Of a stretch of 64,000 nucleotides of DNA, positions 16,152 to 34,982 are shown one piece after another. The notes beneath the pieces are model-generated. The model worked only from the letters and a program-made list of their open reading frames with translations. It was not told where the DNA came from and searched no databases. The position numbers were made by a program, and so were the translations under genes. The stretch's first letter is position 1. Every line of letters begins with the position of its first letter. The DNA lies in contig CAWAMW010000002.1 of assembly GCA_963783305.1 (NCBI GenBank), forward strand, positions 256,001-320,000, written 5' to 3'. The DNA comes from an uncultured Gemmatimonadales bacterium. GTDB lineage: Bacteria > Gemmatimonadota > Gemmatimonadetes > Longimicrobiales > RSA9.

Positions 16152-16155
16152 CGGC

Positions 16156-16323
16156 TCACCGGTTCAGCAGGGTGAAGTACATGATCCCCCACATGCCGGC
16201 GAGCGCCATGAGGAAGACGATCATGATGAACAGGGTGCCCGTGGTGGTGGGCTCCTCGTCCGGTGGCAGCTCGGAGGGGTCGAACTCGGCGTCGTGAGGG
16301 GGGCGCTCGGCGTCACCCTTCAT
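16156..16323 (-). CDS. cbaD: ba3 oxidase subunit IIa-like microprotein (55 aa, absent from ORF track)
   Basis: Manual translation MKGDAERPPHDAEFDPSELPPDEEPTTTGTLFIMIVFLMALAGMWGIMYFTLLNR. One TM ending W..MY..LL.R, directly upstream of subunit II. AGGAG RBS. Confidence 0.8.
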   Translation of the reverse strand: MKGDAERPPHDAEFDPSELPPDEEPTTTGTLFIMIVFLMALAGMWGIMYFTLLNR

Positions 16324-16359
16324 GGGGGGTCTCCTGGTTGTATTGGCTGGTGCGCGGCG

Positions 16360-16596
16360 TCAGCGGACGTCGATACGGCGGATGGCTCGGGACAGCATGC
16401 CGAGTAACAGCAGGAAGATCAAGAGGATTGCGAGCGTGCCCAGCAGGCGTGGGGTTTCGAAGCGCCCTGCCAGGAGCTCGTTGATCGTGGTCCACAGGTA
16501 GTACACCATGGGGGCACCCACCACCACGAACGACGCAATGAAGCCGATGAGCGCTCCGGTCCGGAGTCCCGGTTCCTGCGTATCCACCTCAGCCAT
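16360..16596 (-). CDS. Small two-TM membrane protein
   Basis: MAEVDTQEPGLRTGALIGFIASFVVVGAPMVYYLW...LAILLIFLLLLGML. GGAG RBS. Confidence 0.7.
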   Translation of the reverse strand: MAEVDTQEPGLRTGALIGFIASFVVVGAPMVYYLWTTINELLAGRFETPRLLGTLAILLIFLLLLGMLSRAIRRIDVR

Positions 16597-16647
16597 GCTG
16601 GCTCCCGGTCTGGGGGAATGGAAAACCGGTTCGACCATGGGTCAGGT

Positions 16648-17052
16648 TCAGGTCAACTCAGCTTCGGCCCTCCGGCCGGTCACCGCAACCCACTGCTCGC
16701 CGTCCAGGCGCAGCATGGTCCACACATTGATGGTGTCGCACGCGGGGCAGTGGGCGTGGGTGTCATCGATGATTTCGAGCTCCTGCACGCGCTCGCACGC
16801 TTCGCACACCGCCCGCACCGTCTCCAGCCGCTCCGGAGCCATACCGCTCCGGGCGAGACGCACGCCCATGACCACGCGGGGGAGCGCCGAGACCGCGCAC
16901 CGCTCTCCCGTGCACTGCGGTCCGAAGTCCAGGCAGACCATGTCCCCACCGTCCGGCAGCGTGGCGTGCCCACTGCCGTGCAGCGGCTGCGGCGTGACGG
17001 TGACCGTGACGTCGTGGTTGCACTTCGGACAGAACACCTTGCGCGATTCCAT
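16648..17052 (-). CDS. Cys-rich hypothetical protein (5-Cys domain plus zinc ribbon)
   Basis: MESRKVFCPKC...MVCL...CTGERC, then CEAC...CPAC. GAGGAGG RBS. Confidence 0.75.
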   Translation of the reverse strand: MESRKVFCPKCNHDVTVTVTPQPLHGSGHATLPDGGDMVCLDFGPQCTGERCAVSALPRVVMGVRLARSGMAPERLETVRAVCEACERVQELEIIDDTHAHCPACDTINVWTMLRLDGEQWVAVTGRRAEAELT

Positions 17053-17302: not shown

Positions 17303-18334
17303 CTAGGCAATGTGCAGGAGATCGGCGCTCCGGTCCACGCTCGCGATTACGCGGCGCGCACCCTCGTCGGTCTCCCCGAATACAGCCGTGCCGGCGGCAT
17401 CGGCCATCATGCAGCGGTCCGCGGCCACGGTGACGCTCCGCATGGCGCTCCGCCGGGGCTCACCCGTGCGCGGGTCCAGCAGATGGTGGTAGCGGCGACC
17501 CTCGTACTCGAAGTACTGCTCGTAGTCGCCGGACGTGGCGATCGCCCGATCACTGATCCGGAACGTCGCCGCCAGCTTCCCGGCGTCATCGGGATCGCGG
17601 ACGCCCACCTCCCACGCGTCCCCGTCCTCCGAGACCCCCAGGGCGTACAGGTCCCCGCCCACGTTCACCAAAGCGTTCTGCACGCCCCACTCCCGCAGCG
17701 CGGCCACCGCGCGGTCCACGCCGTAGCCTTTGGCGATGCCGCCCAGGTCCAGTGCCACATCCTCATCACGATAGACCACGACCGGCGAACCGGAATGCTC
17801 GCCGAGCTCCAGCTCCCGGTAGAGCGACGCGCCGGCGAAACGACGCAGCTCGCCGGCGGCGGGGGGGGCCGCGCGATGGCCCACGTCCCAGAGCTCGACC
17901 GCCCGGCCCAGTGTGGGGTCGAATGCGCCCTGGCTGGCCTCCGCCCAGACGAGCGCGGCGGACACCACCTCCGCGGTCGCGCCACTCACCGGCACCGGCC
18001 GCTGCGCCGCCTCACGGTTGGCGCGACCCACCTCGGAATGGTCGCTGAACCGGGTCATGGTGCGGTCCACGGTCCGGAGCTCGGCGATCGCCGCGCCAAT
18101 GGCGGCCTGCGCGTACCGCGGGTCCCGGTGGACCACGCCGATCTCGGCGATCGTACCCATCACCGGCACCACCCGCCGCACCAACCTGCGACCGGGCCGG
18201 ATCACTCCCGGCGTGGCCGCCACCACGAGCGCGCCCACACCCAGCGCCATGAACTCGCGACGGGACGGCCGACCACCGGCGACGCCGGGCTCGGAGGTCG
18301 GGTTCCGGGACTCGATATTCGGATTGCGATTCAT
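17303..18334 (-). CDS. apbE: FAD:protein FMN transferase with Tat signal
   Basis: SRREFMALG Tat motif, VMGT, FDPTLG, DLGGIAKGYGVD, ATSGDYEQ, HHLLDPRTG. Confidence 0.93.
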   Translation of the reverse strand: MNRNPNIESRNPTSEPGVAGGRPSRREFMALGVGALVVAATPGVIRPGRRLVRRVVPVMGTIAEIGVVHRDPRYAQAAIGAAIAELRTVDRTMTRFSDHSEVGRANREAAQRPVPVSGATAEVVSAALVWAEASQGAFDPTLGRAVELWDVGHRAAPPAAGELRRFAGASLYRELELGEHSGSPVVVYRDEDVALDLGGIAKGYGVDRAVAALREWGVQNALVNVGGDLYALGVSEDGDAWEVGVRDPDDAGKLAATFRISDRAIATSGDYEQYFEYEGRRYHHLLDPRTGEPRRSAMRSVTVAADRCMMADAAGTAVFGETDEGARRVIASVDRSADLLHIA

Positions 18335-18483
18335 TTTTCCTGCTCCGTGTACTTGCATGAGGCGCCACTGCACGAGCCGCAGCTGTCGCCGCCGCACTTC
18401 TGTTTCCGCGCCAGAACCGGCGCCATCAGCCCGAACGCACCGAAGAGCACCGCGAAACCGAGCACCGCCACCACCGTGCTCAC
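18331..18483 (-). CDS. NqrM-like/Cys-rich single-TM microprotein (50 aa)
   Basis: (V/M)STVVAVLGFAVLFGAFGLMAPVLARKQKCGGDSCGSCSGASCKYTEQEK. Overlaps the rnfA stop and the apbE start by 4 nt each. Confidence 0.7.
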   Translation of the reverse strand: MSTVVAVLGFAVLFGAFGLMAPVLARKQKCGGDSCGSCSGASCKYTEQEK

Positions 18484-19058
18484 GACGAGAACAGCCCGGC
18501 GAAGCCCATGAACGCCAGCGACAGGCTGCCGGCGATGATCAGGACCAGGCCCATGTTCCGCGCCACCGCGGGGAGGGCCGACAGCTCCGTGCGCTCTCGG
18601 ATCGACGCCATGAGCACGAGCGCCAGCGTGACGCCGAGGCCGGCGCCGATGGCGAACACGAGCCCCTCGAGGAACCCGTAGCCGCGGTTCGTCTGGAAGA
18701 TCGCCAGACCGAGGATCGCGCAGTTGGTCGTGATCAACGGCAGGAAGATGCCCAGCTCCCGGAAGAGCCCCGGGCTCACCTTCTTGATCGTGATCTCCAC
18801 GATCTGCACCAGCGATGCGATCACCACGATGAACGAGATCAGCCGCAGGTACGGCGCCGAGGGCAGCACGAAGCTGTTCAGGAACCACGCGGCGATGGCG
18901 GTCAGCACCATCACGAAGATGTTTGCGCCCCCCATCCGGAGCGCCGTGCTCACCCGCGCCGACACGCCCAGGAAGGGGCACAGCCCGAGGAAGAGCGCCA
19001 GCGTGAAGTTGTTGACCAGCAGCGCCGAGATGAAGATGAAGAACAGATCGCCGCCCAT
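18480..19058 (-). CDS. rnfA: Rnf electron transport complex subunit A
   Basis: LVNNFTLALFLGLCPFLGVS, LPLITTNCAILG, LSLAFMGF. Confidence 0.95.
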   Translation of the reverse strand: MGGDLFFIFISALLVNNFTLALFLGLCPFLGVSARVSTALRMGGANIFVMVLTAIAAWFLNSFVLPSAPYLRLISFIVVIASLVQIVEITIKKVSPGLFRELGIFLPLITTNCAILGLAIFQTNRGYGFLEGLVFAIGAGLGVTLALVLMASIRERTELSALPAVARNMGLVLIIAGSLSLAFMGFAGLFSS

Positions 19059-19756
19059 CACGCCACCTGCTTTCCGGTGGGCGCGGTGGCCCGCGCGGTC
19101 ATGGAGCCCACGCCGTGCGGCCATTCACGCACGCGCGGGCCGCTCCCCTTCTTCTTCCGCTCCTCCCACGAGGCGAACCCCAGCAGGATGAAGCCGAGGG
19201 TGAAGAACCCGCCCGGAGGCAGGATCATGATCACCCACGGCTCGAAGCCATCACCGAAGACGGAGTAGCCCAGGATGCTGCCGCTGCCGAGGAGCTCCCG
19301 GAAGGTGCCCATGATGAGCAGCGCGATGCCGAAGCCGAGACCGCTTCCGACCGCGTCCAGCACCGACCGACCCACGGAGTGCTTGCTCGCGAACGCCTCC
19401 TGCCGCCCCAGGATCATGCAGTTCACCACGATCAGCGCGATGAAGGCGCCCAATGCCTTGTGGATCTCCGGCACCACCGCGTTCAGCACCAGGTCCACAA
19501 TCGTCACGAACGTCGCGATGATCAGGATGTAGGCGCTGATCCGGACTTCCTTCGGGATCACGTCCTTCACCAGTGAGACCAGGATGCTGCTCCCGACCAG
19601 GACGAAGAACGTCGCCGCCGCCATGGCGATGCTGTTCGCCACCGTGTTCGTAACCGCCAGCGCCGGACACAGCCCCAGCAGCTGGATCAGCACCGGGTTC
19701 TCCTTCCAGACCCCGCGCATGAGGTCCTGCGTCGGCGTCGTCTGCCTCGGGCTCAT
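19058..19756 (-). CDS. rnfE: Rnf complex subunit E
   Basis: WKENPVLIQLLGLCPALAVT, LIVVNCMILGR, ILPPGGF. Confidence 0.95.
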   Translation of the reverse strand: MSPRQTTPTQDLMRGVWKENPVLIQLLGLCPALAVTNTVANSIAMAAATFFVLVGSSILVSLVKDVIPKEVRISAYILIIATFVTIVDLVLNAVVPEIHKALGAFIALIVVNCMILGRQEAFASKHSVGRSVLDAVGSGLGFGIALLIMGTFRELLGSGSILGYSVFGDGFEPWVIMILPPGGFFTLGFILLGFASWEERKKKGSGPRVREWPHGVGSMTARATAPTGKQVA

Positions 19757-20490
19757 TGCCCACCCCCCGCGTATCCCTTCAGGACACCGTCCAGCGCTTC
19801 CAGACGGTGGTTGATGATGTCGATGACCGCGTTGGACGAGATCGTGGCACCCGTGATCATGTCCACCTCCTCCGCCGCACCCGTCGGCTCCTTCACCCCA
19901 CGGAGCGGAGTGCCCACGCCGTCGAACCCCGTGATGAACGCCTCGTCCTTCATGATCGCGTCCCCCAGCCCCGGGGTTTCCTTGCTCTCCAGCACCCGCA
20001 TCCCCAGCACCTCCCCCGAGCCTGGGTCATAGCCGAAAATGAGCTGGATCACGTCCTGGAAGCCCGGTTCCGCCCCGACGATCGCTATGCCCATGGGGGC
20101 GCCGCTCGCGCTGAAGCCGGCATAGACCTTCTCCGCCTTCACCGTGTCCACACCCGCCGGCGGCTCTTCCACGAGCCGACCGTTTTCGACGTACAATGTC
20201 TGCACCCGCTCCGGACCCCCCAGCACCTCGCCAATGGCGTCCGTCAGCACGCGCGCCCGGTACTCGAGGATCTGAGGCTGCGCCCATTCGAATACGCTGA
20301 CGATGAGCAGCCCCGCCAGCGCGCCCGCCAGCGCGAGCGTCGTGATCAGTCGCCACGCCGGCACGTCGTCCGCCTCCGGGTGCGGACCCGCATCCGACTC
20401 GAACGCCGGCCCGGTCTCCGGCGGCTCCTCCGCATCTCCCCGGTACGCCTGCGACTCCGTCACGGGCAGCTCCTTCCGATCCTCGCTCAT
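19753..20490 (-). CDS. rnfG: Rnf complex subunit G (FMN-binding)
   Basis: TM anchor, ETPGLG, flavinylation motif DMITGATISS. Start MSEDRK overlaps the rnfD stop. Confidence 0.92.
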   Translation of the reverse strand: MSEDRKELPVTESQAYRGDAEEPPETGPAFESDAGPHPEADDVPAWRLITTLALAGALAGLLIVSVFEWAQPQILEYRARVLTDAIGEVLGGPERVQTLYVENGRLVEEPPAGVDTVKAEKVYAGFSASGAPMGIAIVGAEPGFQDVIQLIFGYDPGSGEVLGMRVLESKETPGLGDAIMKDEAFITGFDGVGTPLRGVKEPTGAAEEVDMITGATISSNAVIDIINHRLEALDGVLKGYAGGGQ

Positions 20491-21566
20491 GCCGCCCCCA
20501 TTTTCTTCGCCGACCGTTCCGCGGTACCGAAGACCTTGGGACGCGTCGCGCGCTCGATGAACGGGACCATGGCGTTCATCAGCAGGATGGCGTACATGAC
20601 GCCTTCCGGCAGCCCGCCCCAGTTGCGGATCACCACCACCAGCGCGCCGATCCCGACTGCGTAGATCCACGAGCCCTTGTGGGTCACCGGCGAGGTGACC
20701 ATGTCGGTCGCCATGTAGACGGCGCCCAGCATGAGACCGCCGCTGAAGAGCATGAAGAGCGGCCCCGGGTAGGCCGGATCGATGGCGCTCAGCAGCCACG
20801 ACAGCCCCGCCACCGTGGCGAAGATCCCGGCGGGAATCCGCCAGTTCAGATAGTTGCGCGCGGCCAGGTACGCACCCCCCAGCAGGATCAGGATCGCCGA
20901 CGTCTCGCCCAGCGACCCGCCGGTCGTACCCACCAGCAGGTTGAGCACGTCCGTCGCCTGACCCTCGAACTTCATGAGCCCCAGCGGCGTCGCCTGCGTC
21001 AGCGCGTCCACCTCCCCCGCCGTCATCAGCGGCGTGGCGAACAGGTCTCCCCGCAGCTGGAGCCATGAGCCCGTATCCGCCATCCGCAGCGACGGCCAGG
21101 TCGTGATGGCCGTGGGGAACGCCGCCTGGAGGAACGCCCGGCCGAGCAGCGCCGGGTTGAAGATGTTCTGCCCGAGACCCCCGAAAATGAGCTTTCCGAA
21201 CCCGATCCCGAACGCACCGCCCACGAAGGCCATCCAGAGCGGGAACCCCGGGGGGAGCGTGAGGCCGAGCAAGAGCCCGGTGATCGCCGCCGAGCCGTCG
21301 CGCAGGGCGCCGCCCGGGCCGAACACCCGCTCCGTCAGCATGGCCCCGAGCACCGCGGTGGCGATCACCAGCAGCGCGCTCACGCCGAAGAAGTAGAGCG
21401 AGGCCGCCACCACCGGCAGGAGTGTGATCACCACCGACCACATGATCCGGGCGGTGGAATCCTGTGCGTGCAGGTGCGGCGAGGCCATGAGCCGCAGCGA
21501 CGGATCGTCCGTCGGTCCGGGCAGGCCCGCCGTCTGCTGCCAGCCGGTCCCGCGCCACGGGCTCAT
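20487..21566 (-). CDS. rnfD: Rnf complex subunit D
   Basis: ASPHLH, FGGLGQNIFNPAL, FMN site TQATPL, GSLGETSA, MATDMVTSP, PEGVMYAILLMN. Confidence 0.95.
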   Translation of the reverse strand: MSPWRGTGWQQTAGLPGPTDDPSLRLMASPHLHAQDSTARIMWSVVITLLPVVAASLYFFGVSALLVIATAVLGAMLTERVFGPGGALRDGSAAITGLLLGLTLPPGFPLWMAFVGGAFGIGFGKLIFGGLGQNIFNPALLGRAFLQAAFPTAITTWPSLRMADTGSWLQLRGDLFATPLMTAGEVDALTQATPLGLMKFEGQATDVLNLLVGTTGGSLGETSAILILLGGAYLAARNYLNWRIPAGIFATVAGLSWLLSAIDPAYPGPLFMLFSGGLMLGAVYMATDMVTSPVTHKGSWIYAVGIGALVVVIRNWGGLPEGVMYAILLMNAMVPFIERATRPKVFGTAERSAKKMGAA

Positions 21567-23074
21567 GCGTGCACCGCGGCCGTCCCGGCCTCGTCCCCGA
21601 CCAATGCATCCGCTGCCGATCCAGGCGATTCAGCCGCCGCGGCCGCCGCCTCCGCCCGTTCCCGCTCCGCCTTCTCTTCCGCCTCGTCCTTCTGCCGCTG
21701 CTTCCGCCGCCGCAGTCCGCCCTTCCCCAGTGCGAACATCTGGGAGAGCGGGATATTGGACGGGCAGACATAGGAGCAGGAGCCGCACACCATGCAATCC
21801 ATGAGGTGTTGGTTCTCCATCTCCTCGTAGCGGCCGAGCTGCGCCAGCTGGCCCAGGTGCTGCGGGTCCAGGAAGACAGGGCACGCGTCCAGGCACCGGC
21901 CGCAGTGGATGCACGGCATGGCCGGCGGACGCGCCGACTCCTTGTCCGTGAGCACCACCACACCGGACGTGCCCTTCACGATCGGAACATCCAGATCCGG
22001 CTGCGGCAGCCCCATCATGGGCCCGCCGAAGATCACCTCCGTCGCGTCCTCCGTCAGCCCGCCACAGAACTCGATCACGTCCCTGAGCTTGGTCCCCACC
22101 GGCACCACCAGGTTCTGCGGCCGGCGAACGCCCGGGCCGGTGACGGTGACGATCCGCTCGATCAGCGGATACCCCGTCTCGAAGACCTCGGCGATCGCGG
22201 CGATGGACCCCACGTTCTGGACCACCGCCCCAACATGCATCGGCAGCTTCCCCGACGGCACTTCCCGCCCCGTCACCGCCTTGATCAGCATCTTCTCCGC
22301 GCCCTGCGGATACTTCACCGTCAGCCCGATCACCTCGATATCCAGGTCCGGTGGGACCGTCTCGCGCAGCCGCTCGATGGCGTCGGGCTTGTTCTTCTCC
22401 ACCCCGATCACCGCCCGAGCCACGCCCAGACACTGCATCATCACCCGGATCCCGAAATGCACCCGCTCCGGGTGCTCCACCATGACCCGGTGATCACTCG
22501 TCAGGTACGGCTCGCACTCCGCACCGTTGATCAGCAGGAGCTCGACCGAGACATCCTCAGGCGGGTTCAGCTTCACGTGCGTCGGGAACCCGGCCCCTCC
22601 GAGCCCCACCACTCCCGCACCCTGCACCGCCTGCCGCACTTCCGCCGCGCTCAGGCCGTCCCACTCCGGGACGATCCGCGGCCGCGGCAGCTGCGGACTG
22701 AACGTGTCCACCTGGATCCGGATCGCCCGGTCCATGCTCCCGTCCGGGTGCGGCCACCACCCGATCTCCGTCACCCGCCCCGTGGCCGGCGCGTGGATCG
22801 GCACCGACACGTACCCGTCCGCCACACCCAGCACGTCCCCGCGCTCCACCCGGTCGCCCACCGCCACGATCGGACGCGCCGGCTTCCCCGCGTTCTGACG
22901 CAGCGGAAGCACGACCTCCTCCGGGAACGGCATCCGCCGGATCGGCACGCTTGCCGTCAGCGACTTCGAGTCCGGCGGGTGCACACCGTGCCGGAAGCTC
23001 GGCCCGAAGAGCAGCTCCCCGAACGTGCGCTTCCGCGCCTTCTTCCCCGCCCCTCCAGTAGTTGGCTTCACCAC
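21563..23074 (-). CDS. rnfC: Rnf complex subunit C
   Basis: FRHGVHP, GLGGAGFPTHVK, NGAECEPYLTSD, YPQGAEK, GGPMMG and two CxxCxxCxxxCP motifs. Confidence 0.95.
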   Translation of the reverse strand: MVKPTTGGAGKKARKRTFGELLFGPSFRHGVHPPDSKSLTASVPIRRMPFPEEVVLPLRQNAGKPARPIVAVGDRVERGDVLGVADGYVSVPIHAPATGRVTEIGWWPHPDGSMDRAIRIQVDTFSPQLPRPRIVPEWDGLSAAEVRQAVQGAGVVGLGGAGFPTHVKLNPPEDVSVELLLINGAECEPYLTSDHRVMVEHPERVHFGIRVMMQCLGVARAVIGVEKNKPDAIERLRETVPPDLDIEVIGLTVKYPQGAEKMLIKAVTGREVPSGKLPMHVGAVVQNVGSIAAIAEVFETGYPLIERIVTVTGPGVRRPQNLVVPVGTKLRDVIEFCGGLTEDATEVIFGGPMMGLPQPDLDVPIVKGTSGVVVLTDKESARPPAMPCIHCGRCLDACPVFLDPQHLGQLAQLGRYEEMENQHLMDCMVCGSCSYVCPSNIPLSQMFALGKGGLRRRKQRQKDEAEEKAERERAEAAAAAAESPGSAADALVGDEAGTAAVHA

Positions 23075-23196: not shown

Positions 23197-26100
23197 TCAG
23201 TTGAACGGCTCCGCCCGCTTCACCCACTTCTCCAGGTCCTTCTCGCTCTTGTTCAGCGGGGTCCCGGGGTGGATGATCCCGGCCGGACACCGCTCAGCGG
23301 CCATGACGATCTCCTTGAACGAGCCGGCCGCCGCATCGGCGATATACGCCTGCTTCGCATCGTTGTACTTGAACAGCCGGTTGTTCAGGTTCGTGCATTC
23401 GTTGCAGGTGGTGCAGCGCGCCGTCTCGATGTACGGCTCCATCCCGAGCTCGTCGTCCTCCTCCGGCTCGGCCGTCGCCGATTCCACCACCGACGACGGC
23501 TTCTCCATGGTGGCCACGCCACCCCCGTCCTTCACCGACTCCGCACCGCCCGCCGCGCTCCCCTTCCCGGCCCCGTTTCCTCCGCTCGGACCCACCTGGA
23601 GTCCCCCAACCTCGGCGCCGATCGGCTGCAGCCCAGGCGTCGACTGCGCGGTCTTGAGCAGGTCCGCAACCGTACGGTTCCCCGTACCCTGCTTCACCAG
23701 CCCCTCGGCCAGCCGCCGGGCGATGATCTGCGGGTACGTGGCCTTCAGCTCCTCCAGCTTGGCCTCGAACTCCTGCCGCGCGACCGCGAGCTTCGACTCG
23801 AACTCCGCCTGCATCTCCGAGCCGATCTCGTCGCGGACCCACTCCGGAACCTCCAGCCCCGCCATCTCCTTCAGCTGGTGCCAGTAGAGCAGCCGCTCCT
23901 CGGCCAGCGTCACCATCTCCTTCGAGACCCGCACCCGCTTCAGCGTGCGGTCGTCGGCCAGGGAGTAAATGAACGGGACCTTGCCCGCGCGATCGTCCTT
24001 CTCCATGGCGACGAACTCGTGGAATACCACCATGTCGTCGTTCCACTGGTCCTCGGGCACGGACTTGAAGTGCTTCTTGAACCGCGTCTCTGTCGCGGCC
24101 CAGTCGGCGATCGTGACCGGCAGCTCGATCTTCTGCTCGGCGCCATCCGCGTCCACGTACGTGAGCTCGTACAGCGGCCAGAGCTCGTCCATGCTCGGGT
24201 TCCCGTCCAGGCTCAGGCACTCCGCGATGGAGTCGCCGGCATCCGGGTCGTAGGTAAGGAACGGGAACGCCCGGCTCTCCAGAGCCAGCTTCGCGCTCGC
24301 CGGCGCCCACTCATCCGGCAGCCCGTGCTCCACCGGGCACGGCGTGTACACGTTGATCACGCTCGGCCGCCGCGTCTTGAGACCCTTGATCAGCCCGCCG
24401 ATCAGGTGGCTCGCCGACGCCTGCGAGGTCTGGTGGACGTAGGCCCCGCGGTGCGCCATGGCGATATAGCCCAGCTCCTTGCGGACCTCCGTCTTCCCGT
24501 GCACCGCGGCGCCGAACGGCGACATGTCCGCAGACTGCCCCGTGTACGTGCCCGTGCTCGCCTGCCCACCCGTGTTCGAGTAGACCTGCGTATCCAGCAC
24601 GATCACCCGGATCGGCTTCCCGCTCGCCAGCAGCCGGCTCAGGTTCTGGAACCCGATGTCCAGCATGGCGCCATCGCCGCCGATCGACAGGATCGGCGGG
24701 ACCAGGTTGAACTCCTCCTCGTTGAACTGCTGCCAGTCGAAGTTCGTGAAGAACGCCTCGTCCTTCTCAGCGTCGTAGCTGCCGTCCAGGAGCTTCTCGG
24801 CGCGGCGGAGGGAGACGAAGTTGTCGCCCATCTTCCGCATGTGACCTTCGAAGATCCCGATCGCGATGCTCGGCGCGTCCTGGAACAGGTGGTTGACCCA
24901 CGGGAACGGGTACGGGTTGAAGGGATAGCTGCTCCCCCACACGCTCGAGCAGCCGGTGGAGTTGGTGATCCCCATTTCCGCCCGGCCGCGGCCGCTCGGT
25001 CCCTCCTCGTACCGCCACTTCAGGTCCTTCAGCGCCTTCAGCGACGACGCGTACCGCTCCAGCTGCACGCGCTTGTCGTCGCTCATCGGCACGTCCACCC
25101 GACCGCCCTCGGCCACCGACATGAGGTCCAGGTCGGCATCCGCCGACAGCAGCCCCCGCGCCTTCTCGTCCAGACCGGCGATCAGCGTATCGAGCTTCGT
25201 CATCAGCTTCTCGACCCGCCCCTGCATCAGCGCCTCGATCGTCGACGTGATCAGGTGCACCGCCGTCTTTTCGCCACAGCCCATGCACGCGCCATCGCCG
25301 CCCACCATGCTTCGGTACACGTCCTTCCGGAGCAGCAGGCTCGGCAGCACCCCGATCCCTTCCTCCAGGTCACGGATGTTGATGAACCGCTCATCCGTGT
25401 CCGGCAGCGCCTTCCAGAAGTCCCAGTTCCGGCGCAGCTCCTCCACCGTCTCCTCGTCCTGCTTGATCGTGATCAGCGCGTTCTCCGGGCAGACCTCCAC
25501 GCAGATGTTGCAGCCCTTGCACGCTTCCGGGTTGATCGTAACCGACAGCAGCCCGCCGGCTCCCTTCTCCTTCGACTCCGGGTTGTCCCAGAACGGCTGC
25601 GTCTTCGCCAGCGGGAACTCCGCCAGGATCGGGTACACGGCGGCGAAGTCGTCATCCAGCTCACGGCGCTTCTCCGGGTCCCAGTTCAGCTTCGGAACCA
25701 GGTTCTTGTACGCCGCCTTGAGGGTGTCGCCGAAGTTGTCGAAGGGCACCCCCTCCACCACCTTCCGCGTCTCCTTCACGAGGTGCTTCGACACCTGCTT
25801 CAGCCGGTCCAGGCTGCGCCCGTTCTGGGCGTGCGCGATCGCCGTTTCCAGCAGGTCCTCCACACTGTTCACCAGACCCGGGATCGCCGCGTCCGGGCAC
25901 TGCGTCCAGCACTGCGCGCACCCCGTGCACTTGCTCGCGATGAAGTCCGGGACCTCGAACCGGATGTTCGTCATGTCCCGGATCACGCTCGTGGCCGCCG
26001 GGATCGCGCTGATCGCCGCATACGGGTCCGCGATCGGCTCCTCGCCCGCGCCGTAGATCGAGCACACCTGCTCGAAGAACCGGCCGGGGTTCCCGATCCC

Positions 26101-28341
26101 GATCTCCGCCGCCGGCACGTCCAGCATGTCCGGCACCTGCGCCACCGGGAGCGCCACGTCCTTGCCGTTCCCCGCGGCCGCCACCACGTCCCGGATCTCG
26201 TCGTAGCCACGCCGGATCACCCGCACGTTGTCCTCGACGATCTTGCTGCCCAGCTTGCCGAACTTCCGCTCCATCTGCTCGCGGATCCCCGCGAACAGCG
26301 TCTCCTCGTCCAGACCCTCCCGCTCAGCGAGCGGGGAGACCTTGAAGAACGCGCCCATGAAGGCCGCGCCCTGCATGCGGTAGCGGAGCTCCGCGGAGGA
26401 CGACTCGTCCTGCGCGATCTTGAAGCCGTCCAGCGCGTACACCTTGATCTTCTTCGAGCGGACATAGCGCTTGGCGTCCTCCGGGAAGCTCTCCCAGAGC
26501 GCCTCGGGCTCCTGGTCGCTCTGGATCACGAACACGCCGCCTTCCCGCAGCCCCGCGAGCGGGTTCGAGTGGCGGAACACGTTCGTGTCCGGGCTCAGAA
26601 CCACGTCCACGTGCTTCAGCTCCGCGTTGATCTTGATGGGATCGCGGCTGAGCGTGGCGTAGAACGTCGTAGGCTGACCCTTCTTCTCCGAGCCGTACTT
26701 CGGATTGGCCTTCACGTGCAGCCCGGCCATCTCGAAAGCCGTCAGCGACACGTTCTTCCCCATCGTGATCGCGCCCCAGCCGCCCACGCTGTGAATCCGC
26801 AGCGCCGTCGAGCCCTCCGGAAGGAGGTTGATGCTCCCCGCCGGCTCGAGCGCCAGGTCCGCCAGCTTCGGATACGACTCCAGGAGCTGCTGCTGCCAGA
26901 TCTCCAGCTTCGGCAGCTTCGTGTTCTTTCGGACGAAGTCGATTCCCAGATAGAACTGACGACGGCGCTTCCCGTCGTCCAGCATGTTCTCCACTGCCGC
27001 CACCAGGTCGCCCGCCTGCAGGTCGCGACTGCCGAAACCGAACCCGCCGCTGAAGAAATCGGGCACCTCGTCCGCGCTCAGCGCGGGGACGCCCTCGTGC
27101 GGGATTTCCACCTTCTTCTGCTCCGACAGTGGGTACCGCGCCGACCGGCCGTTCCCCGCCGCCGTACGCGCCTCCCGGCCGTTCTCCACCGCCTTCGCCA
27201 TCGCCGCCCGGATCTCCCGGAGCAGCGGCGCGTCCACCGCCAGCGGCTGGTCCACGCGCTCCAGCACCGTCACCGCCTTCTTCCCCGCCAGCAGCTTCGC
27301 CACCAGGTCGGTCGGGAAGGGCCGGAACATGACCATGTCCAGCACGCCCACCTTCAGACCCTTCTCCTTGCGCAGGTAGTCCGCCACCGCCTCCGCGTTG
27401 CCCACCACCGAGCCCTGGCCCAGGAGCACGTACTCCGCGTCCTCGAGCCGATATCCCATCGCGCGGGCGTACCGGCGGCCCGTCAGCTCACCGTAATAGG
27501 CCATCGCCTGGTCGGTGATCGCCTGCACGTGGTCGAAATAGAAGGGCCGCTGCGCCGCAACACCCTGCGCGTAGCTGTCCTGGTTCTGCACTGTGCCCAG
27601 CATGGCCGGATAGTCCATGTCGAACAGCTCGGGGATCCGGCGACGCTTCTCGCCGAACACCAGCCGCTGCGCCGGCGTGGGGCTCTCGATGATGTCCGAC
27701 GGGTCGCCCAGGTACTCCTTCACCAGCGCCCGCTCCGGCATCTTCATCGTCTCGATGACGTGACTCGTCAGGAACCCGTCCTGAGCCACGATCCCCGGGT
27801 TCAGGCTGAGCTCGGCGATCCGGTGCGCGATCAGGTTCAGGTCCGCCGAGGCCTGGACGTCCTTCGCGAAAACCTGGAAGAAGCCGGTGTCATCCACCGC
27901 GTGGTAGTCGTCGTGGCCCGCGTGCACGTTGAGCGCGTGCTTCGTCATCGCCCGCGCGGCCACGTTCAGCACGTACGTCAGTCGCTTCCCCGCCGCCGCA
28001 TACAGGCTCTCGTGCATGTACGCGATGCCCTGGCCGCTGGAGAAGTTGGTCGCCCGCAGCCCGACCATGCTCATCCCCGCCGTGACGCCCGCCGCCGCAT
28101 GCTCGCCCTCCGGCTCGAAGAAGAGGAGCTTGCGGCCGTTGACGTTCGTTACTCCCTGGGCCACGGCCATGGCCCACCCCTCGCCCATCTGCGTCGAGGG
28201 CGTGATCGGGTAGGCACCCGCGGCCTCGCTCCCCGCCGTCTCCATCGTGACGATGGCGGTGGTGCCGTCGGTGGCTTCCGGGGTGCCCGGATACCGGGCT
28301 TCCGCCTCGGCCGCTTCCTTCTTCATGAACGGGATCTTCAT
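23197..28341 (-). CDS. Single-chain pyruvate:ferredoxin oxidoreductase-like enzyme (~1714 aa) with helical inserts and C-terminal ferredoxin
   Basis: YPITPS, EGEHAA, SSGQG, KYGSEKKG, CTGCAQCWTQCP, CKGCNICVEVCP, ACMGCGE, NSTGCSSVW, GGDGAMLDIG, YSNTGGQ, C-terminal CTTCNEC...CP. Confidence 0.92.
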   Translation of the reverse strand: MKIPFMKKEAAEAEARYPGTPEATDGTTAIVTMETAGSEAAGAYPITPSTQMGEGWAMAVAQGVTNVNGRKLLFFEPEGEHAAAGVTAGMSMVGLRATNFSSGQGIAYMHESLYAAAGKRLTYVLNVAARAMTKHALNVHAGHDDYHAVDDTGFFQVFAKDVQASADLNLIAHRIAELSLNPGIVAQDGFLTSHVIETMKMPERALVKEYLGDPSDIIESPTPAQRLVFGEKRRRIPELFDMDYPAMLGTVQNQDSYAQGVAAQRPFYFDHVQAITDQAMAYYGELTGRRYARAMGYRLEDAEYVLLGQGSVVGNAEAVADYLRKEKGLKVGVLDMVMFRPFPTDLVAKLLAGKKAVTVLERVDQPLAVDAPLLREIRAAMAKAVENGREARTAAGNGRSARYPLSEQKKVEIPHEGVPALSADEVPDFFSGGFGFGSRDLQAGDLVAAVENMLDDGKRRRQFYLGIDFVRKNTKLPKLEIWQQQLLESYPKLADLALEPAGSINLLPEGSTALRIHSVGGWGAITMGKNVSLTAFEMAGLHVKANPKYGSEKKGQPTTFYATLSRDPIKINAELKHVDVVLSPDTNVFRHSNPLAGLREGGVFVIQSDQEPEALWESFPEDAKRYVRSKKIKVYALDGFKIAQDESSSAELRYRMQGAAFMGAFFKVSPLAEREGLDEETLFAGIREQMERKFGKLGSKIVEDNVRVIRRGYDEIRDVVAAAGNGKDVALPVAQVPDMLDVPAAEIGIGNPGRFFEQVCSIYGAGEEPIADPYAAISAIPAATSVIRDMTNIRFEVPDFIASKCTGCAQCWTQCPDAAIPGLVNSVEDLLETAIAHAQNGRSLDRLKQVSKHLVKETRKVVEGVPFDNFGDTLKAAYKNLVPKLNWDPEKRRELDDDFAAVYPILAEFPLAKTQPFWDNPESKEKGAGGLLSVTINPEACKGCNICVEVCPENALITIKQDEETVEELRRNWDFWKALPDTDERFINIRDLEEGIGVLPSLLLRKDVYRSMVGGDGACMGCGEKTAVHLITSTIEALMQGRVEKLMTKLDTLIAGLDEKARGLLSADADLDLMSVAEGGRVDVPMSDDKRVQLERYASSLKALKDLKWRYEEGPSGRGRAEMGITNSTGCSSVWGSSYPFNPYPFPWVNHLFQDAPSIAIGIFEGHMRKMGDNFVSLRRAEKLLDGSYDAEKDEAFFTNFDWQQFNEEEFNLVPPILSIGGDGAMLDIGFQNLSRLLASGKPIRVIVLDTQVYSNTGGQASTGTYTGQSADMSPFGAAVHGKTEVRKELGYIAMAHRGAYVHQTSQASASHLIGGLIKGLKTRRPSVINVYTPCPVEHGLPDEWAPASAKLALESRAFPFLTYDPDAGDSIAECLSLDGNPSMDELWPLYELTYVDADGAEQKIELPVTIADWAATETRFKKHFKSVPEDQWNDDMVVFHEFVAMEKDDRAGKVPFIYSLADDRTLKRVRVSKEMVTLAEERLLYWHQLKEMAGLEVPEWVRDEIGSEMQAEFESKLAVARQEFEAKLEELKATYPQIIARRLAEGLVKQGTGNRTVADLLKTAQSTPGLQPIGAEVGGLQVGPSGGNGAGKGSAAGGAESVKDGGGVATMEKPSSVVESATAEPEEDDELGMEPYIETARCTTCNECTNLNNRLFKYNDAKQAYIADAAAGSFKEIVMAAERCPAGIIHPGTPLNKSEKDLEKWVKRAEPFN

Positions 28342-29183
28342 CGGATACTCCCTGCGACAACGGGTTGGCGGAACTGCGAGCCCTCGACCCACACGATGGC
28401 CCCGGTCGGGCAGCGGGCGATGGCTTCCTTGTTCTCCAGCTCTGACTTCATGTAATCGACTACGGCCAGACCGTCCTTCATCTCGATCAGGCCATCGGGC
28501 GCATCGACCGCGCAGCGGCCGCACGCGTTACAGGCGACGGCGCACACTTCCGTGGCCGCCTCGCCCTCCAGCAGACTCTTGCACTGCACGATCAGGTGGT
28601 CGCTCACGGGCAGCAGCTCGAACAGCCCCAGCGGACAGGCCTCCACACAGTCGCCGCACGCGGTGCACAACTCGGGGTCCACCACCGGGAGCCCGGTCGA
28701 GCTCATGACAATGGCATCGAAGTCGCACGATACCGCGCAGTCGGCCAGCCCCACGCACCCCCAGGTGCACCCCTTCCCCCCACCCCCGACCGCCACGGAC
28801 GCCGCGCAGCTCTCGACGCCGTAGTACTCTGCCCGCTGCACGGCCACATCGCTCCCGCCCGCGCACATCAGCCGGGCCACCACCTTGTCCGCCTCGCCGG
28901 CGGAGACGCCCAGGTAGTCAGCCACGTCCTCACGCTCGAACTCGCTCATCACCGTGCACGTGGCCGGCGGCTCCTTGCCGCTGATCACGGCCTCGGCGAA
29001 CGTGCGACAGCCCGCGTAGCCACAGGCCCCGCAGTTCGCGCCCGGCAGCAAGCCCTCCACCTCGTCGATGCGCGGGTCCTCCCACACCTTCATCTTTTTG
29101 TTCGCCAGCGCGATGAGGGTGCCAAACGTCAGGCCCACTCCGCCCAGGATGGCGGCCGAGCCCAGGAGCGGAGCGATTCCCAT
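28338..29183 (-). CDS. rnfB: Rnf complex subunit B
   Basis: N-terminal TM, LPGANCGACGYAGC, CTWGCVGLADC, CTACGDCVEACP. Confidence 0.93.
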   Translation of the reverse strand: MGIAPLLGSAAILGGVGLTFGTLIALANKKMKVWEDPRIDEVEGLLPGANCGACGYAGCRTFAEAVISGKEPPATCTVMSEFEREDVADYLGVSAGEADKVVARLMCAGGSDVAVQRAEYYGVESCAASVAVGGGGKGCTWGCVGLADCAVSCDFDAIVMSSTGLPVVDPELCTACGDCVEACPLGLFELLPVSDHLIVQCKSLLEGEAATEVCAVACNACGRCAVDAPDGLIEMKDGLAVVDYMKSELENKEAIARCPTGAIVWVEGSQFRQPVVAGSIR

Positions 29184-29187
29184 TTCC

Positions 29188-30174
29188 TCAGACCTCGCCC
29201 GGTCCCGGGATGGTCGCCTGGCGGAGCAGCCACGCCGCCAGCTTGTCCGTCGGGTCCACCGCGGCCGCCGGCTCGCCCGCCGCCGCCGCCACCCGACCGG
29301 CCACCGCGCCGTCCAGCACCTTCAGCAGCTCGAGGTCCGACTCCTGGCGCGCAACGCTCAGCCGGCCGACCGGCCGGCACCGCTCCTCGGGCACCGACTC
29401 CAGCTTCAGCTGACCCGGGCCATCCTCCTCCGGCTGGTACCGGAACGCCGCGCCATCCGTCACCACCGCCACCGCCGCCGGGCCCTCCCAGGTCTTCAGT
29501 GCGCTCAGCGCATCGGCGTCCGCGCCCTGCACCACCAGCGTGCCCGGCGTGATCAGCCGCGAGAGCGCCGCCGGCGGCGCCGGCCTGCGGACCAGCAGCA
29601 CGATCGCCTGCGCACCCTCGAGCAGGTCCACAAGCCCCGCCGGACGCAGGTCCGACCCGTCCACCTCCACTACCAGCGGCGGCGCCACCGTCCGCTCCGC
29701 ACGGTTCCACAGCGCCGGATCGAAACCGTCCGCGTAGTCCGCCGACGGCACGCCGGCGCGCGCGTTCTCCACCGCTCGGCCCGCGCCGAACGCGCGCCCC
29801 GCGGACGCGAGGGCCCGCCGGACCGTCTCCAGCAGGTCACCGCCCGGGACCACGCGCACGGTGTGCAGGTTGTCGCCCTCACGCAGGATCGACGTCAGCA
29901 CCTTGAGCGCTTCCCCGATCCGGTCCAGCGAGTCGCTGTCCATGGCCTGCTGGTCGGAGAACAGCGACTCGAAGCGCTCCGTGTCGATACGACCCGCCGC
30001 GAACGCGCCCAGCTCCGCCGCCGCCCGCTCGCCCTTCTTGGCGTGCTTCGGCGAACGCTGACTCTCCAGCAGCGTGCGGACCTCGTCCACGGCCGTGGCC
30101 ACCGCCGACCGGTACGACTCGCGGCGATCCCCGAGCGCCTCGAGCGCGCTCTCCCTCAGCTCATCAAACGGCAT
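29188..30174 (-). CDS. Hypothetical protein, apparent degenerate homolog of the PFOR C-terminal (TPP-domain) half
   Basis: Operon-embedded, overlapping korB. By-eye similarity to the neighbouring PFOR without the GDG motif or Fe-S Cys motifs. Confidence 0.75.
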   Translation of the reverse strand: MPFDELRESALEALGDRRESYRSAVATAVDEVRTLLESQRSPKHAKKGERAAAELGAFAAGRIDTERFESLFSDQQAMDSDSLDRIGEALKVLTSILREGDNLHTVRVVPGGDLLETVRRALASAGRAFGAGRAVENARAGVPSADYADGFDPALWNRAERTVAPPLVVEVDGSDLRPAGLVDLLEGAQAIVLLVRRPAPPAALSRLITPGTLVVQGADADALSALKTWEGPAAVAVVTDGAAFRYQPEEDGPGQLKLESVPEERCRPVGRLSVARQESDLELLKVLDGAVAGRVAAAAGEPAAAVDPTDKLAAWLLRQATIPGPGEV

Positions 30175-31111
30175 AGTTGTCGAGCTCCTGGTTCAGACGA
30201 CCGATCTTCTCCTCGGCTGAGAACTTCGGCAGCCGGCGCGTCTCCTCGTACACCGGCCGCGTCTCATCCCTGAAGAAGATCCCGAGCGGGACCCGGCCGC
30301 TCTCCTCGGCGATCACGCGCGCCATGTCGATGTCCTTCGGGTCGTGGTGCCTGTGGTTCTTGTACAGACCGTGGATCTCCGGCACGTTGATGCCGTCATC
30401 GTGCACCAGCAGCTCCACCGCGTCCGGGTTTCGCACCGCATCCTGGAAGATCGGCGCGGTGAACTTCGGACACCGCTGGAGGATCCGGACGAAGCCCAGC
30501 CCCTTGTGCCGGTGGGCGGCCCGCAGCGTTGCGTACAGGTGCTGGGGAATCCACTCGGCGGTCTGCGCGACGAAGCTCGCGTTCGTGAACCCGAGCAGGT
30601 TCTCGATGGGGTTCAGCGCCGGCAGGTAGCTGCCCCGCGGCTGCGTGTTGCTCTTGAAGCCCTGCGGCGTGGTGGGCGACGTCTGCATCTTCGTCAGACC
30701 GTAGATGTTGTTGTCCAGGATCACCGCCGTCATGTCCATGTTGTAGCGGACGGCGTGGAGCCAGTGCCCGGCTCCGATGGACGTGCAGTCGCCATCGCCC
30801 ATCACCACGAAGACGTTCAGGTCGGGGCGGTTCAGCTTGATCCCCTCCGCCACCGGCAGCGCCCGTCCGTGGATCCCGTGGAACCCGTAGGTCCGCATGT
30901 AGTGCGGGAACCGGCTCGAGCAGCCGATCCCTGACACGAACATGGTCTCCTCGGGCTTCAGCTGCTCCTCGCTCAGCAGTTTCTGATAGGCCGTGAGCAC
31001 CGCCATGTCACCACACCCCGGACACCACCGCGGGAGCGCGCCCTCGTAGTCCTCCATCCCGAAGACACGGTCATCCGTGGCCGCGTGCAGGAGTGAGCAG
31101 GTCGCGATCAT
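30164..31111 (-). CDS. korB: 2-oxoacid:ferredoxin oxidoreductase beta subunit
   Basis: PRWCPGCGD, SGIGCSSR, HGRALP, GDGD, DNNIYGLTKMQTSPTT, ILQRCP. Substrate not established. Confidence 0.9.
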   Translation of the reverse strand: MIATCSLLHAATDDRVFGMEDYEGALPRWCPGCGDMAVLTAYQKLLSEEQLKPEETMFVSGIGCSSRFPHYMRTYGFHGIHGRALPVAEGIKLNRPDLNVFVVMGDGDCTSIGAGHWLHAVRYNMDMTAVILDNNIYGLTKMQTSPTTPQGFKSNTQPRGSYLPALNPIENLLGFTNASFVAQTAEWIPQHLYATLRAAHRHKGLGFVRILQRCPKFTAPIFQDAVRNPDAVELLVHDDGINVPEIHGLYKNHRHHDPKDIDMARVIAEESGRVPLGIFFRDETRPVYEETRRLPKFSAEEKIGRLNQELDNYAV

Positions 31112-33048
31112 GCCGCACCTCCCTTCGACTTCTTCGTGGTTCGCCGTCCGCTCGAGCTCAGCTTCCCGTCCCGCACCAGCCGGCTCACGATCGCTTCGTG
31201 GATTACCTTCGGCCGCAGCGGCTCGCCCAGCACCCGCGTCCACGAGTCCACGTCCACCAGCGTCCGCCCCCGGAGCAGCCACGCCAGCTGGCCGTAGCGC
31301 CGGTTGTCATCCGTGATGTACGGGTCGCCCGCATCGTCGCTGTAGTTGATCTCCACCGTCATGACCCGGTCGAACTTCTCGAAGATCTCGCGGAGCCCGG
31401 GCTCCATGGGCGACAGGAACCGCAGGTGGAGCGACGACACCGAAAGCCCCTCGTCGCGCGCCCGGTCCACGGCCTCCTCGATCGCCCCCTTCGTGCTCCC
31501 CCACCCCACCACCAGGAGGTCGCCCTCCTCGTCCCCATGCACGTCCGGCTTCTTCAGCGCCTGCTGGAGCACCGCCAGCTTCCGGCTCCGCATCGCCGAG
31601 CTCCGCTGGTTGATGTCGCTCGCGTACGCCACCTTGCTGTTCTCGTCGTGCGCCAGCCCCGTCACCGTATGCATGCCGTTCGGCTGGCCCGGAATGAACC
31701 GCCGGCTCAGCCCCGTCTTCGGGTCCCAGTCGTACGGCCTCAGCCCGTCCGGGATCGGCGACTGGTCGAACGGGCCCGCCATCCAGCTCAGCTGCGGGTC
31801 GGGCCGCGGGAACGGCTGTACGCCCGTCGCCAGGTTGGCGTCCGTCAGCACCATCACCACCATCCGGAAGCTCTCCGCGATCCGGCGCGCGGTGACCATG
31901 GCGTGGAAGCACTCCTCGATGGTCGCCGGCGCCATCACCACGTGCGGCGCGTCCCCCGGCTGACCGTGGATCGCCGCCAGCAGGTCGCTCTGCTCCACCT
32001 TGGTGGGCAGCCCCGTGCTCGGGCCGCCGCGCTGCACATCCACCAGCACCAGCGGGATCTCCGTCATCATGGCAAGACCCAGGAACTCCGTCTTCAGCGC
32101 CAGACCCGGCCCCGACGTGATCGTCCAGGCCACCTTCCCGGAGTAGGAAGCGCCGATGGCCACGCCCGCCGCGGCGATCTCGTCCTCCGCCTGATGCAGG
32201 GTGCCGCCGAATCGCTCGTACATCTCGCCCAGCTGGTGTGACACCGACGTGGCCGGCGTGATCGGGTACATGGCCGCCAGATCCATCCCCGCCGCCACAC
32301 CGCCCAGCGCGATGGCCTCGTTCCCGTTCATCACCACCATCGCCTGCGCCTGCGCTTCCGGCGTCACGTCCACCCGGAAGTCCAGGTTCTCCGACGCCCA
32401 GTCCCACCCCAGCTGCACCAGCTGATGGTTCTTGTCCGTGATCTCCTGCTTCTTGTTCCGGAAGGCGTACGCGATCTGGTCCCGTACGATCTGCATGTCG
32501 CGGTCGTAGATCCACGAGAGGATCCCGAGCACGAACATGTTCTTCCCTTTCCGGGGATCGTCCACCACCGTCTTGCAGATCTCGTCCATCGGGATCTCGA
32601 TCACACGGTAGTTCTTCGGCGAGATCTCCTTCATCGCCGCGACCCACTGCTTGCGGATCGTCTCATCCGGGTGGTCCTTCCACCGGTTCTCCAGCAGCAC
32701 CACCGCATTGTCGGTCAGCGCGTCCACCCGGTGTCGGTTCAGCAGCACCTGCTCGTTGAACGCCACCACCAGGTCCGTGGAGTCCCCCCAGTTGCTGATG
32801 TGACCCCGACCGATCCGGATTCGGTTCCCGCTCGCGCCCGCGGGGATCCGTGGCGGTGGCTGGATCTCCGCTGGGATCAGCTCCACCGTCCATACGCCGT
32901 TGCCCATCTTCGCCGATACCGCACCGAAGATCTGGCCGCACTTCTGCGCGCCTTCCCCCGGATCGGATACGATCTCGATGGTGTGCTCCCGGGCGTCCAC
33001 CACTCGTGGCTTCCGCGTCCGCTTCGTCTCTTTTGTTACGGTCGTCAT
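31108..33048 (-). CDS. korA: 2-oxoacid:ferredoxin oxidoreductase alpha subunit (gamma-alpha fusion)
   Basis: GEGAQ, KNMFVLG, MNGNEA, YPITPAT, QAEDEIAA, TSGPGLALK, VQRGGPSTGLPTK. Confidence 0.92.
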   Translation of the reverse strand: MTTVTKETKRTRKPRVVDAREHTIEIVSDPGEGAQKCGQIFGAVSAKMGNGVWTVELIPAEIQPPPRIPAGASGNRIRIGRGHISNWGDSTDLVVAFNEQVLLNRHRVDALTDNAVVLLENRWKDHPDETIRKQWVAAMKEISPKNYRVIEIPMDEICKTVVDDPRKGKNMFVLGILSWIYDRDMQIVRDQIAYAFRNKKQEITDKNHQLVQLGWDWASENLDFRVDVTPEAQAQAMVVMNGNEAIALGGVAAGMDLAAMYPITPATSVSHQLGEMYERFGGTLHQAEDEIAAAGVAIGASYSGKVAWTITSGPGLALKTEFLGLAMMTEIPLVLVDVQRGGPSTGLPTKVEQSDLLAAIHGQPGDAPHVVMAPATIEECFHAMVTARRIAESFRMVVMVLTDANLATGVQPFPRPDPQLSWMAGPFDQSPIPDGLRPYDWDPKTGLSRRFIPGQPNGMHTVTGLAHDENSKVAYASDINQRSSAMRSRKLAVLQQALKKPDVHGDEEGDLLVVGWGSTKGAIEEAVDRARDEGLSVSSLHLRFLSPMEPGLREIFEKFDRVMTVEINYSDDAGDPYITDDNRRYGQLAWLLRGRTLVDVDSWTRVLGEPLRPKVIHEAIVSRLVRDGKLSSSGRRTTKKSKGGAA

Positions 33049-34174: not shown

Positions 34175-34759
34175 CTACCCGGTGATCGTCACGGGGACCG
34201 GGTTGGTCAGCCGCACCTCCTGCGTGTCCCGGATGCGGTTGATCACGCGCTTGAACCAGTTGGGCGGCCGTTTCTCACCCCCGTGCTCCATCACGATCCG
34301 GGCGACCCGGAGCACGTCCGCGTTGCTCATCCGCACGCACCCGTGGGACGCCGCCTCCCCGAGCTCGGAAACCGAGCGCGTGCCGTGGATGTAGAAGGTG
34401 GGCGCCCTGAAGAACATCTTCACGCGACCCATGGGGTTGTTCCACCCTGGGCCCACCGGCTTCTTGCCCCGCGCCCAGTCCGAGTCGGGCGGGTTCCAGC
34501 TCGGGTTCCACACCATCCAGTCGATCTGGTAGGATCCCGTGGGCGTCGGGTGCGCCGAAGACCCCACCGTGACCGGGTGCGTCTGTGTCACCACCCCGTT
34601 CTCCACCACGGACAACGTCCGCTCCGACAGGTCGACCTCCAGCCGCAGGGTCGCCGAAGGCAGCCCGGTCGAGGACGATCTCGGCGTCGAGAACGCAAGC
34701 AAACCCACCGCGGCCGCCAGAACCACCGCCATTATTCCGAGAATGAAACGTTTGCTCAC
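34175..34759 (-). CDS. L,D-transpeptidase (YkuD family)
   Basis: N-terminal signal/TM, PTPTG, NPMG, IHGT...SHGCVRM. GTG start at 34759 follows a GGAG; ATG at 34786 is an alternative. Confidence 0.92.
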   Translation of the reverse strand: MSKRFILGIMAVVLAAAVGLLAFSTPRSSSTGLPSATLRLEVDLSERTLSVVENGVVTQTHPVTVGSSAHPTPTGSYQIDWMVWNPSWNPPDSDWARGKKPVGPGWNNPMGRVKMFFRAPTFYIHGTRSVSELGEAASHGCVRMSNADVLRVARIVMEHGGEKRPPNWFKRVINRIRDTQEVRLTNPVPVTITG

Positions 34760-34982
34760 TGTTTGCTCCGTCCGTGATCTCGCCATAGGTCCCCTTTTCA
34801 CAACGGCTTACAGTGCACGAAAGGGGCCACGGATACCGGCAGCGCGCGGCCGCCGTTGCACCGCTCCACGCACCATCGCGACCGGGTATTTTGCCCCTCT
34901 GAACGACGGTGATACGAGGAGGGTCGGCCGACCTGGGTGTTACCGCTCGCCCACGGAACACCTCTTGCCCCCGCACGAACCC

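Follow-up and report, generated by a model that had tools for sequence, protein, structure and literature searches.

A two-subunit 2-oxoacid:ferredoxin oxidoreductase (korA and korB), a long PFOR-like enzyme, and an Rnf complex are encoded together in the genome of an uncultured Gemmatimonadota bacterium, in a 64,000-nucleotide stretch of a single contig (CAWAMW010000002.1 of assembly GCA_963783305.1; the window herein). Among these recognizable genes is one, named gene X herein, that has no match in Pfam or NCBIfam. What does this gene encode, where might it have come from, and which of its neighbors would its product serve? A first-pass annotation had placed the gene between korB and rnfB, where the open reading frame was confirmed (Table 1). 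It read the product as a catalytically dead copy of the TPP-binding domain VI of the neighboring PFOR, a claim that profile, fold, and motif evidence supports, and as a protein that uses shared helices to pair with PFOR and brings in KorAB.

Operon structure

The genes of the operon and its surroundings are all on the minus strand. The korA and korB genes overlap by ATGA, as do rnfB and the PFOR gene, and korB and X share 11 nt where korB stops and X starts, with the conserved M-P-S-D start of X read across the end of korB. A C-terminal linker and ferredoxin-like domain like that of the long PFOR in the window was found by strict motif in 32 of 38 long PFOR frames of the loci, some of the others being cut by locus ends. 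A promoter scan found nothing. The genes that follow apbE include subunits I and II of a heme-copper oxidase, which score far under the CtaD/CoxB cut-offs; their layout resembles that of ba3-type high-affinity oxidases.

Table 1. Coordinates and properties of features in the window.
Feature	Position	Strand	Properties
YkuD L,D-transpeptidase gene	34175-34801	minus	Upstream of korA; ordinary
korA-type OFOR alpha subunit	31108-33048	minus	TIGR03710 above cut-off; YPITP and RGGPSTG present; no ferredoxin domain; start codon inferred
korB-type OFOR beta subunit	30164-31111	minus	Intact CPGCG, GIGCSSR, GDGD, and CP motifs
Gene X	29188-30174	minus	328 aa; predicted cofactor-less relative of long-PFOR domain VI
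rnfB	28338-29183	minus	TIGR01944 above cut-off; start 4 nt past X stop
Long PFOR-like enzyme	23197-28341	minus	1714 aa; cofactor motifs intact; helical insertions in domain VI; below TIGR02176 cut-off
Linker and ferredoxin-like domain of long PFOR	23197-23420	minus	C-terminal; CTTCNEC...CP
rnfC	21563-23074	minus	TIGR01945 above cut-off
rnfD	20487-21566	minus	TIGR01946 above cut-off
rnfG	19753-20490	minus	TIGR01947 E 5e-26, just below cut-off
rnfE	19058-19756	minus	TIGR01948 above cut-off
rnfA	18480-19058	minus	TIGR01943 E 4e-65, just below cut-off
ApbE-family flavin transferase	17303-18397	minus	Start uncertain
ORF between apbE and oxidase genes	16648-17052	minus	~134 aa; several CxxC pairs; no Pfam match
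Heme-copper oxidase genes after apbE	13999-16638	minus	Subunit I (557 aa), short subunit II (160 aa), 92-aa membrane ORF

The gene X family

Scoring of 8,000 candidates with a 32-row profile yielded at least 1,040 family members at 90% clustering, which form 585 clusters at 50% identity. The seven named loci that hold close relatives are all from Gemmatimonadota, and one homolog outside this phylum was identified by name (P0112, Vicinamibacterales). Pairwise dN/dS for X ranges from 0.07 to 0.46 in 12 of 12 pairs (NG86, in which dS for X is probably underestimated at a GC3 of 0.92), somewhat higher than for korB (0.06-0.15 in eight pairs). Purifying selection, which had been proposed as a check on the pseudo-enzyme reading, is thus evident in every X pair, and X is a real gene with intact frames.

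An AlphaFold2 model of the whole protein has a pLDDT of 90.5. It comprises N-terminal helices (residues 3-104), an alpha/beta core (~105-265), a helix (274-299), a flexible linker that is weakly predicted, and a last conserved helix, DKLAAWLL (308-320). The LAAW motif of this C-terminal helix is conserved in 274 of 288 proteins. One homolog, P0113, carries the helix (DPAD.LA.WLL) in two copies, as expected for a mobile docking element. Sequence searches of the PDB with X and with the 32-row profile found nothing below E 0.3, and a sequence search of the ESM Atlas with X gave no usable match.

Homology to PFOR domain VI

Direct comparison of X with the neighboring PFOR by BLASTP was not significant (best E 0.27). 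Family profiles aligned with hhalign matched X residues 120-265 to PFOR residues ~1166-1386 over 154 columns (probability 80%, E 1.3e-5), and 145-row and 81-row versions gave E values of 3.6e-5 and 1.8e-5, respectively, with probabilities of 71%-78%. The alignment score was 49.6, compared to at most 28.1 in 82 controls (80 shuffled and two reversed). Three core segments that had been paired with PFOR by eye (FDPALWNRAERTVAPP with FDWQQFNEEEFNLVPP, LKTWEGPAAVAV with LKTRRPSVINV, and FRYQPEEDG with LTYDPDAG) are all in register in this alignment. The pairs proposed for the protein ends (AAGRID with EGGRVD, DLELLKVLDG with WHQLKEMAG, and DKLAAWLL with RRLAEGLV) were tested by themselves and scored inside the range of block shuffles or level with it. 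The N-terminal match scored 16.1 against a shuffle maximum of 18.0 and the C-terminal match 11.9 against 12.0; these terminal matches are therefore plausible by position only.

A search of 22,699 six-frame ORFs of the genome with a 145-sequence X HMM returned PFOR as the first non-self match (E 0.0084), whereas with a shallower 121-sequence HMM PFOR was only the 11th (E 5.9). The X profile also matched the long PFOR of another genome, G065, unprompted (E 3.2e-4). The adjacent KorB reached only E 0.096 against the X profile, and a duplication of KorB was rejected as the source of X.

The X core was folded alone (pLDDT 95.9) because whole-model VIA was swamped by helical bundles (PFOR tied, Z 7.0, rmsd 10.8). 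The best match of the core model among 48,161 chains was the PFOR of Moorella thermoacetica (6cin, residues 826-1170; rmsd 6.0, 162 aligned residues, 17% identity) with a Z of 6.9, which at an rmsd of 6 Å is in the middling range on the structure-alignment tool's own scale. Thiamine-diphosphate enzymes account, by title, for 45 of the best 50 structural matches from the same set of chains. Foldseek gave no match at E 0.001 with either the whole or the core model (best E 0.019 and 0.025, TM 0.2-0.4); its top rows for both models were PFOR and oxalate oxidoreductase, without significance. Of the comparisons with domain VI suggested by the first-pass annotation, the profile alignment of the core bears out the relationship and the Foldseek search is not significant. 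Absence of any profile or structural similarity to PFOR, named there as grounds for abandoning the reading, is contradicted by the hhalign alignment, the HMM rank, and the fold.

None of these tests is overwhelming on its own, but together they all agree on one PFOR domain. The predicted core model and the profile match point to a thiamine-diphosphate PP-domain fold, and the core of X is almost certainly homologous to PFOR domain VI. The N-terminal helices may say more about the parent. A helical insertion in this domain has ~90 residues in the long PFOR and ~6 in solved PFORs, and ~100 helical residues precede the first strand of X. With this helical stretch at the place of the long-PFOR insertion, the long type is the likely parent.

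Loss of cofactor motifs

The cofactor motifs considered here, including the Mg/pyrophosphate motif GDG...N, are kept in the neighboring PFOR and KorB. Across 145 diverse members of the X family, CxxC, GDG-x22-30-N, and NTGGQ were each found in none (0/145), so the absence of GDG, YSNTGGQ, and cluster cysteine motifs that was first read from one sequence extends to all members compared. The only cysteine-enriched column in the family reaches 28%, and X itself has one cysteine. A remnant of GDG persists as V-D/E-G, with G173 present in 142/145 members and D172 in 67/145. In the hhalign alignment with PFOR, both the YSNTGGQ loop and the CP..HG loop are deleted in X.

Gene X thus has neither the GDG...N motif nor the four cysteines for a proximal [4Fe-4S] cluster of an active beta subunit. 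It also has no PF02775 or NCBIfam PorB/KorB match, and PF02775 matched none of the 145 members at E 0.01. It does have what is expected of a pseudo-enzyme, namely homology to an enzyme domain with the cofactor residues lost, and purifying selection. Judging from these motifs, the protein is very probably non-catalytic.

Association with KorB, PFOR, and Rnf

Gene order is fixed as korA-korB-X-rnfB-PFOR-rnfCDGEA. All 26 genome loci with X (two pairs of which are the same contig) have korB upstream, and 25 have rnfB downstream, with the last ending at a contig edge. Similarly, korB is directly upstream of X in 77 of 80 metagenome loci, and the other three start at a contig end. Downstream of X in these 80 loci are rnfB (71) or PFOR directly (2), and seven are too short. 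The first-pass annotation had treated absence from syntenic kor-rnf-PFOR clusters as evidence against its reading; the synteny is present in both genome and metagenome loci. The 11-nt overlap between korB and X was found in 79 of 81 loci in which both genes are complete, while the spacing between X and rnfB is variable. In two loci, korB and X are followed directly by PFOR with no rnfB between (L105:922-4498 and L107:90-1930).

Two other loci vary in their surrounding genes. In one, the korAB of the operon is directly preceded by another, more distant korAB pair (L032:2174-4671). The other has rnfC-D-G followed by apbE, with no rnfE or rnfA match between, and a PFOR match that ends at residue 1564 (L114:7354-11342).

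Of 201 genomes from the phylum, 31 carry X, and the same 31 carry the operon's KorB clade (at least 59% identity; next best 49%-52%). A KorB relative of any kind occurs in 142 of the 201, most of them without X. Both the long PFOR and rnfC were identified in 30 of the 31 X genomes, the 31st being cut by a contig end. The genomes counted are relatives, so these counts are not independent. PFOR and Rnf can each occur without X: rnfC is present without it in 13 genomes of family f10, and the single-contig genome G136 has a long PFOR and no X, clade KorB, or rnfC. That PFOR (L128:9111-13580, minus strand; 1489 aa) stands alone, with korAB, X, and rnf all missing from its surroundings. Its hairpin is shortened, and the protein stops short of the RRLAEGL helix and the ferredoxin. 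X and its KorB never separate in the sample, and by this genomic evidence X is tied more tightly to korB than to PFOR. Co-occurrence barely separates KorAB from PFOR/Rnf as the partner of X because X is almost never found without the long PFOR and Rnf, and the separation comes from one genome and two loci. A predicted complex of KorB and X (81-row alignments) scored 0.00 in both runs, which were made without control pairs and are evidence neither way.

Proposed role of gene X

We propose, at about even chances, that X serves KorAB as a non-catalytic accessory subunit and positions it for electron transfer towards RnfB. That X is physically part of a KorAB complex is slightly favored on the gene pattern. 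X would derive from a duplicated C-terminal half of a long PFOR, and its overlap with korB suggests that the two are likely co-translated. KorAB lacks a ferredoxin domain, and X would keep it positioned to pass electrons to a ferredoxin. This acceptor could be the PFOR-tethered ferredoxin or, in certain relatives, one tethered to X itself, with RnfB next in line; from there, Rnf would reduce NAD+ while pumping ions. SucA and several E1 subunits are encoded elsewhere in the inventory of this genome, and the genes of a heme-copper oxidase pair lie just downstream of the operon; the module therefore likely oxidizes 2-oxoacids at low oxygen, where it would substitute for the 2-oxoacid dehydrogenase complexes of the genome. 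The ATP-citrate lyase domain had no match in this genome and none in control genomes either, which says nothing on direction. Against X as a KorAB subunit, other KorAB enzymes, the OFORs of Sulfolobus tokodaii, work without such a subunit (PMC5020499), and X is absent from most of the 142 genomes with a KorB relative.

The sequence of one relative suggests how X might carry its own acceptor. In P0188 (457 aa), X runs straight into the stalk helix of PFOR, then RRLVEGLL, a linker, and a ferredoxin-like domain; the protein has 42% identity to X over 297 aa and E 9e-44 to PFOR. It would show a form of X that serves KorAB with its own ferredoxin arm. Such a tail was found in one of 291 family proteins, and P0188 is a single record without context that might stem from a deletion or from chimeric assembly. 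Longer fused forms of X (656-2000 aa) were not found among the 8,000 candidates, which is weak evidence, and 610-655 aa, the range of a KorB-X fusion, falls outside the lengths covered.

X might also act as a bridge, binding the long PFOR through paralogous helices and KorAB through a new surface, so that a supercomplex shares the PFOR ferredoxin and one Rnf. This is the arrangement closest to that of the first-pass annotation, and it extends rather than excludes a role as accessory subunit of KorAB. It would account for several features of the protein. The PFOR-specific helical insertion is kept in X (GRAFGAAR...W.RAER..PP), the conserved LAAW helix is on a low-confidence linker as for a docking helix, and the RRLVEGLL helix of PFOR takes the LAAW position in P0188. 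It also fits the stand-alone PFOR of G136, which in this one case has a shortened hairpin and neither RRLAEGL helix nor ferredoxin. However, the pairing depends on the terminal helix matches, which are not above shuffles, and the LAAW helix aligns equally readily with another PFOR helix (AEDRL..W). The conserved LG.FAAGRID motif of X has no conserved PFOR counterpart, and the gene coupled to X is korB rather than that of PFOR. We regard bridging as less likely than not. A marginally less likely elaboration makes X the hinge of an undescribed respiratory supercomplex, with KorAB and the long PFOR bound on opposite sides. A shared tethered ferredoxin arm would feed RnfB directly, and in facultative Gemmatimonadota the whole would replace the pyruvate and 2-oxoglutarate dehydrogenase complexes with an ion-pumping, oxygen-shielded system.

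The tight coupling to korB would also suit an assembly or protection factor outside the working electron chain, which transiently covers the dimer or cluster face of apo-KorB or apo-KorAB during TPP and Fe-S loading or under oxygen. Two core helices after the GDG strand are retained (L181-G187 and P201-P210), the hosts also have aerobic dehydrogenases, and a heme-copper oxidase is encoded next door. A fifth subunit is known in oxygen-tolerant variants of Por/Oor (10.64898/2026.09.02.748891). But the ferredoxin-bearing form, P0188, points to electron transfer, and the large retained helical elements exceed the needs of a cap. We regard this explanation as improbable.

A docking protein on the Rnf side, which would bind RnfB or RnfC and not be a KorAB subunit, is a little less probable again. 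It is consistent with rnfB following X in 71 of 80 metagenome loci (4 nt past the X stop here) and with rnfC in 30 of 31 X genomes. The f10 genomes with rnfC and no X, the two loci with X and no adjacent rnfB, and the variable X-rnfB spacing versus the fixed korB-X overlap all argue against it. By far the least probable is that the likeness between X and PFOR is convergent or due to chance, or that X is a decaying relic: the BLASTP value, the lack of a significant Foldseek match, and the lack of sequence matches in the PDB or ESM Atlas would allow it, but three independent approaches (profile-profile alignment, genome-wide HMM rank, and structure alignment) lead to the same PFOR domain, and X has at least 1,040 homologs, intact frames, and dN/dS below 0.5.

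Comparison with known systems

The best structural match of the X core model is domain VI of homodimeric PFORs (M. thermoacetica 6cin/6ciq, Desulfovibrio africanus 1b0p/2c3y), the TPP pyrophosphate-binding domain. By way of the neighboring long PFOR, X has the same order of strands and helices. Unlike that domain, it stands alone as a protein of 328 aa, has no cluster cysteines or GDG...N loop, has the substrate-side loops deleted, and, unlike the solved PFORs, has ~100 N-terminal helical residues. The fold of X also matches the beta subunits of OFORs (S. tokodaii StOFOR 5b46-48, M. marinus 6n2n, oxalate oxidoreductase beta 5exe, and Methanosarcina acetivorans PorB 9bt4) with Z values of 3.3-4.6. 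Like them, it is a separate domain VI protein, close in size, whose gene lies behind that of an alpha subunit. The beta subunits bind TPP and a [4Fe-4S] cluster (PMC5020499). X has neither ligand set and no profile similarity to the adjacent KorB, and it is extra to an intact KorB.

Combinations of PFOR with Rnf and of OFORs with extra subunits have been described elsewhere. In the rnf2 operon of the Solemya velum symbiont, a PFOR gene is located between rnfB2 and rnfC2 in an rnfBCDGEA arrangement, and electrons from pyruvate were proposed to pass to Rnf (PMC4287430); the portion of the main text consulted does not mention korAB or an X-like gene. Five-subunit Por/Oor enzymes are encoded by five-gene operons for CO2 fixation in Hydrogenobacter thermophilus and oxygen-tolerant Campylobacterota (10.64898/2026.09.02.748891). 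They, too, are OFORs that carry an additional subunit and occur in organisms exposed to oxygen, and the analogy is functional only. They differ from the enzyme here, which is a two-subunit type beside Rnf with an extra protein derived, as predicted, from PFOR domain VI. Neither a published description of X nor a described pseudo-enzyme among 2-oxoacid:ferredoxin oxidoreductases was found in the open-licence literature.

The family of gene X is real and undescribed; it consists of pseudo-enzymes, and its operon is strictly conserved. Going by gene arrangement and sequence, the likely role of X is that of a subunit. A large unnamed family thereby gains a fold, an origin, and a candidate role, which for now amounts to an annotation gain and a good hypothesis. 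If X couples a ferredoxin-less KorAB to Rnf, it would bear on how such enzymes, in organisms exposed to oxygen, deliver low-potential electrons to a membrane pump, and the KorAB-Rnf coupler would be a concrete target for cryo-EM.
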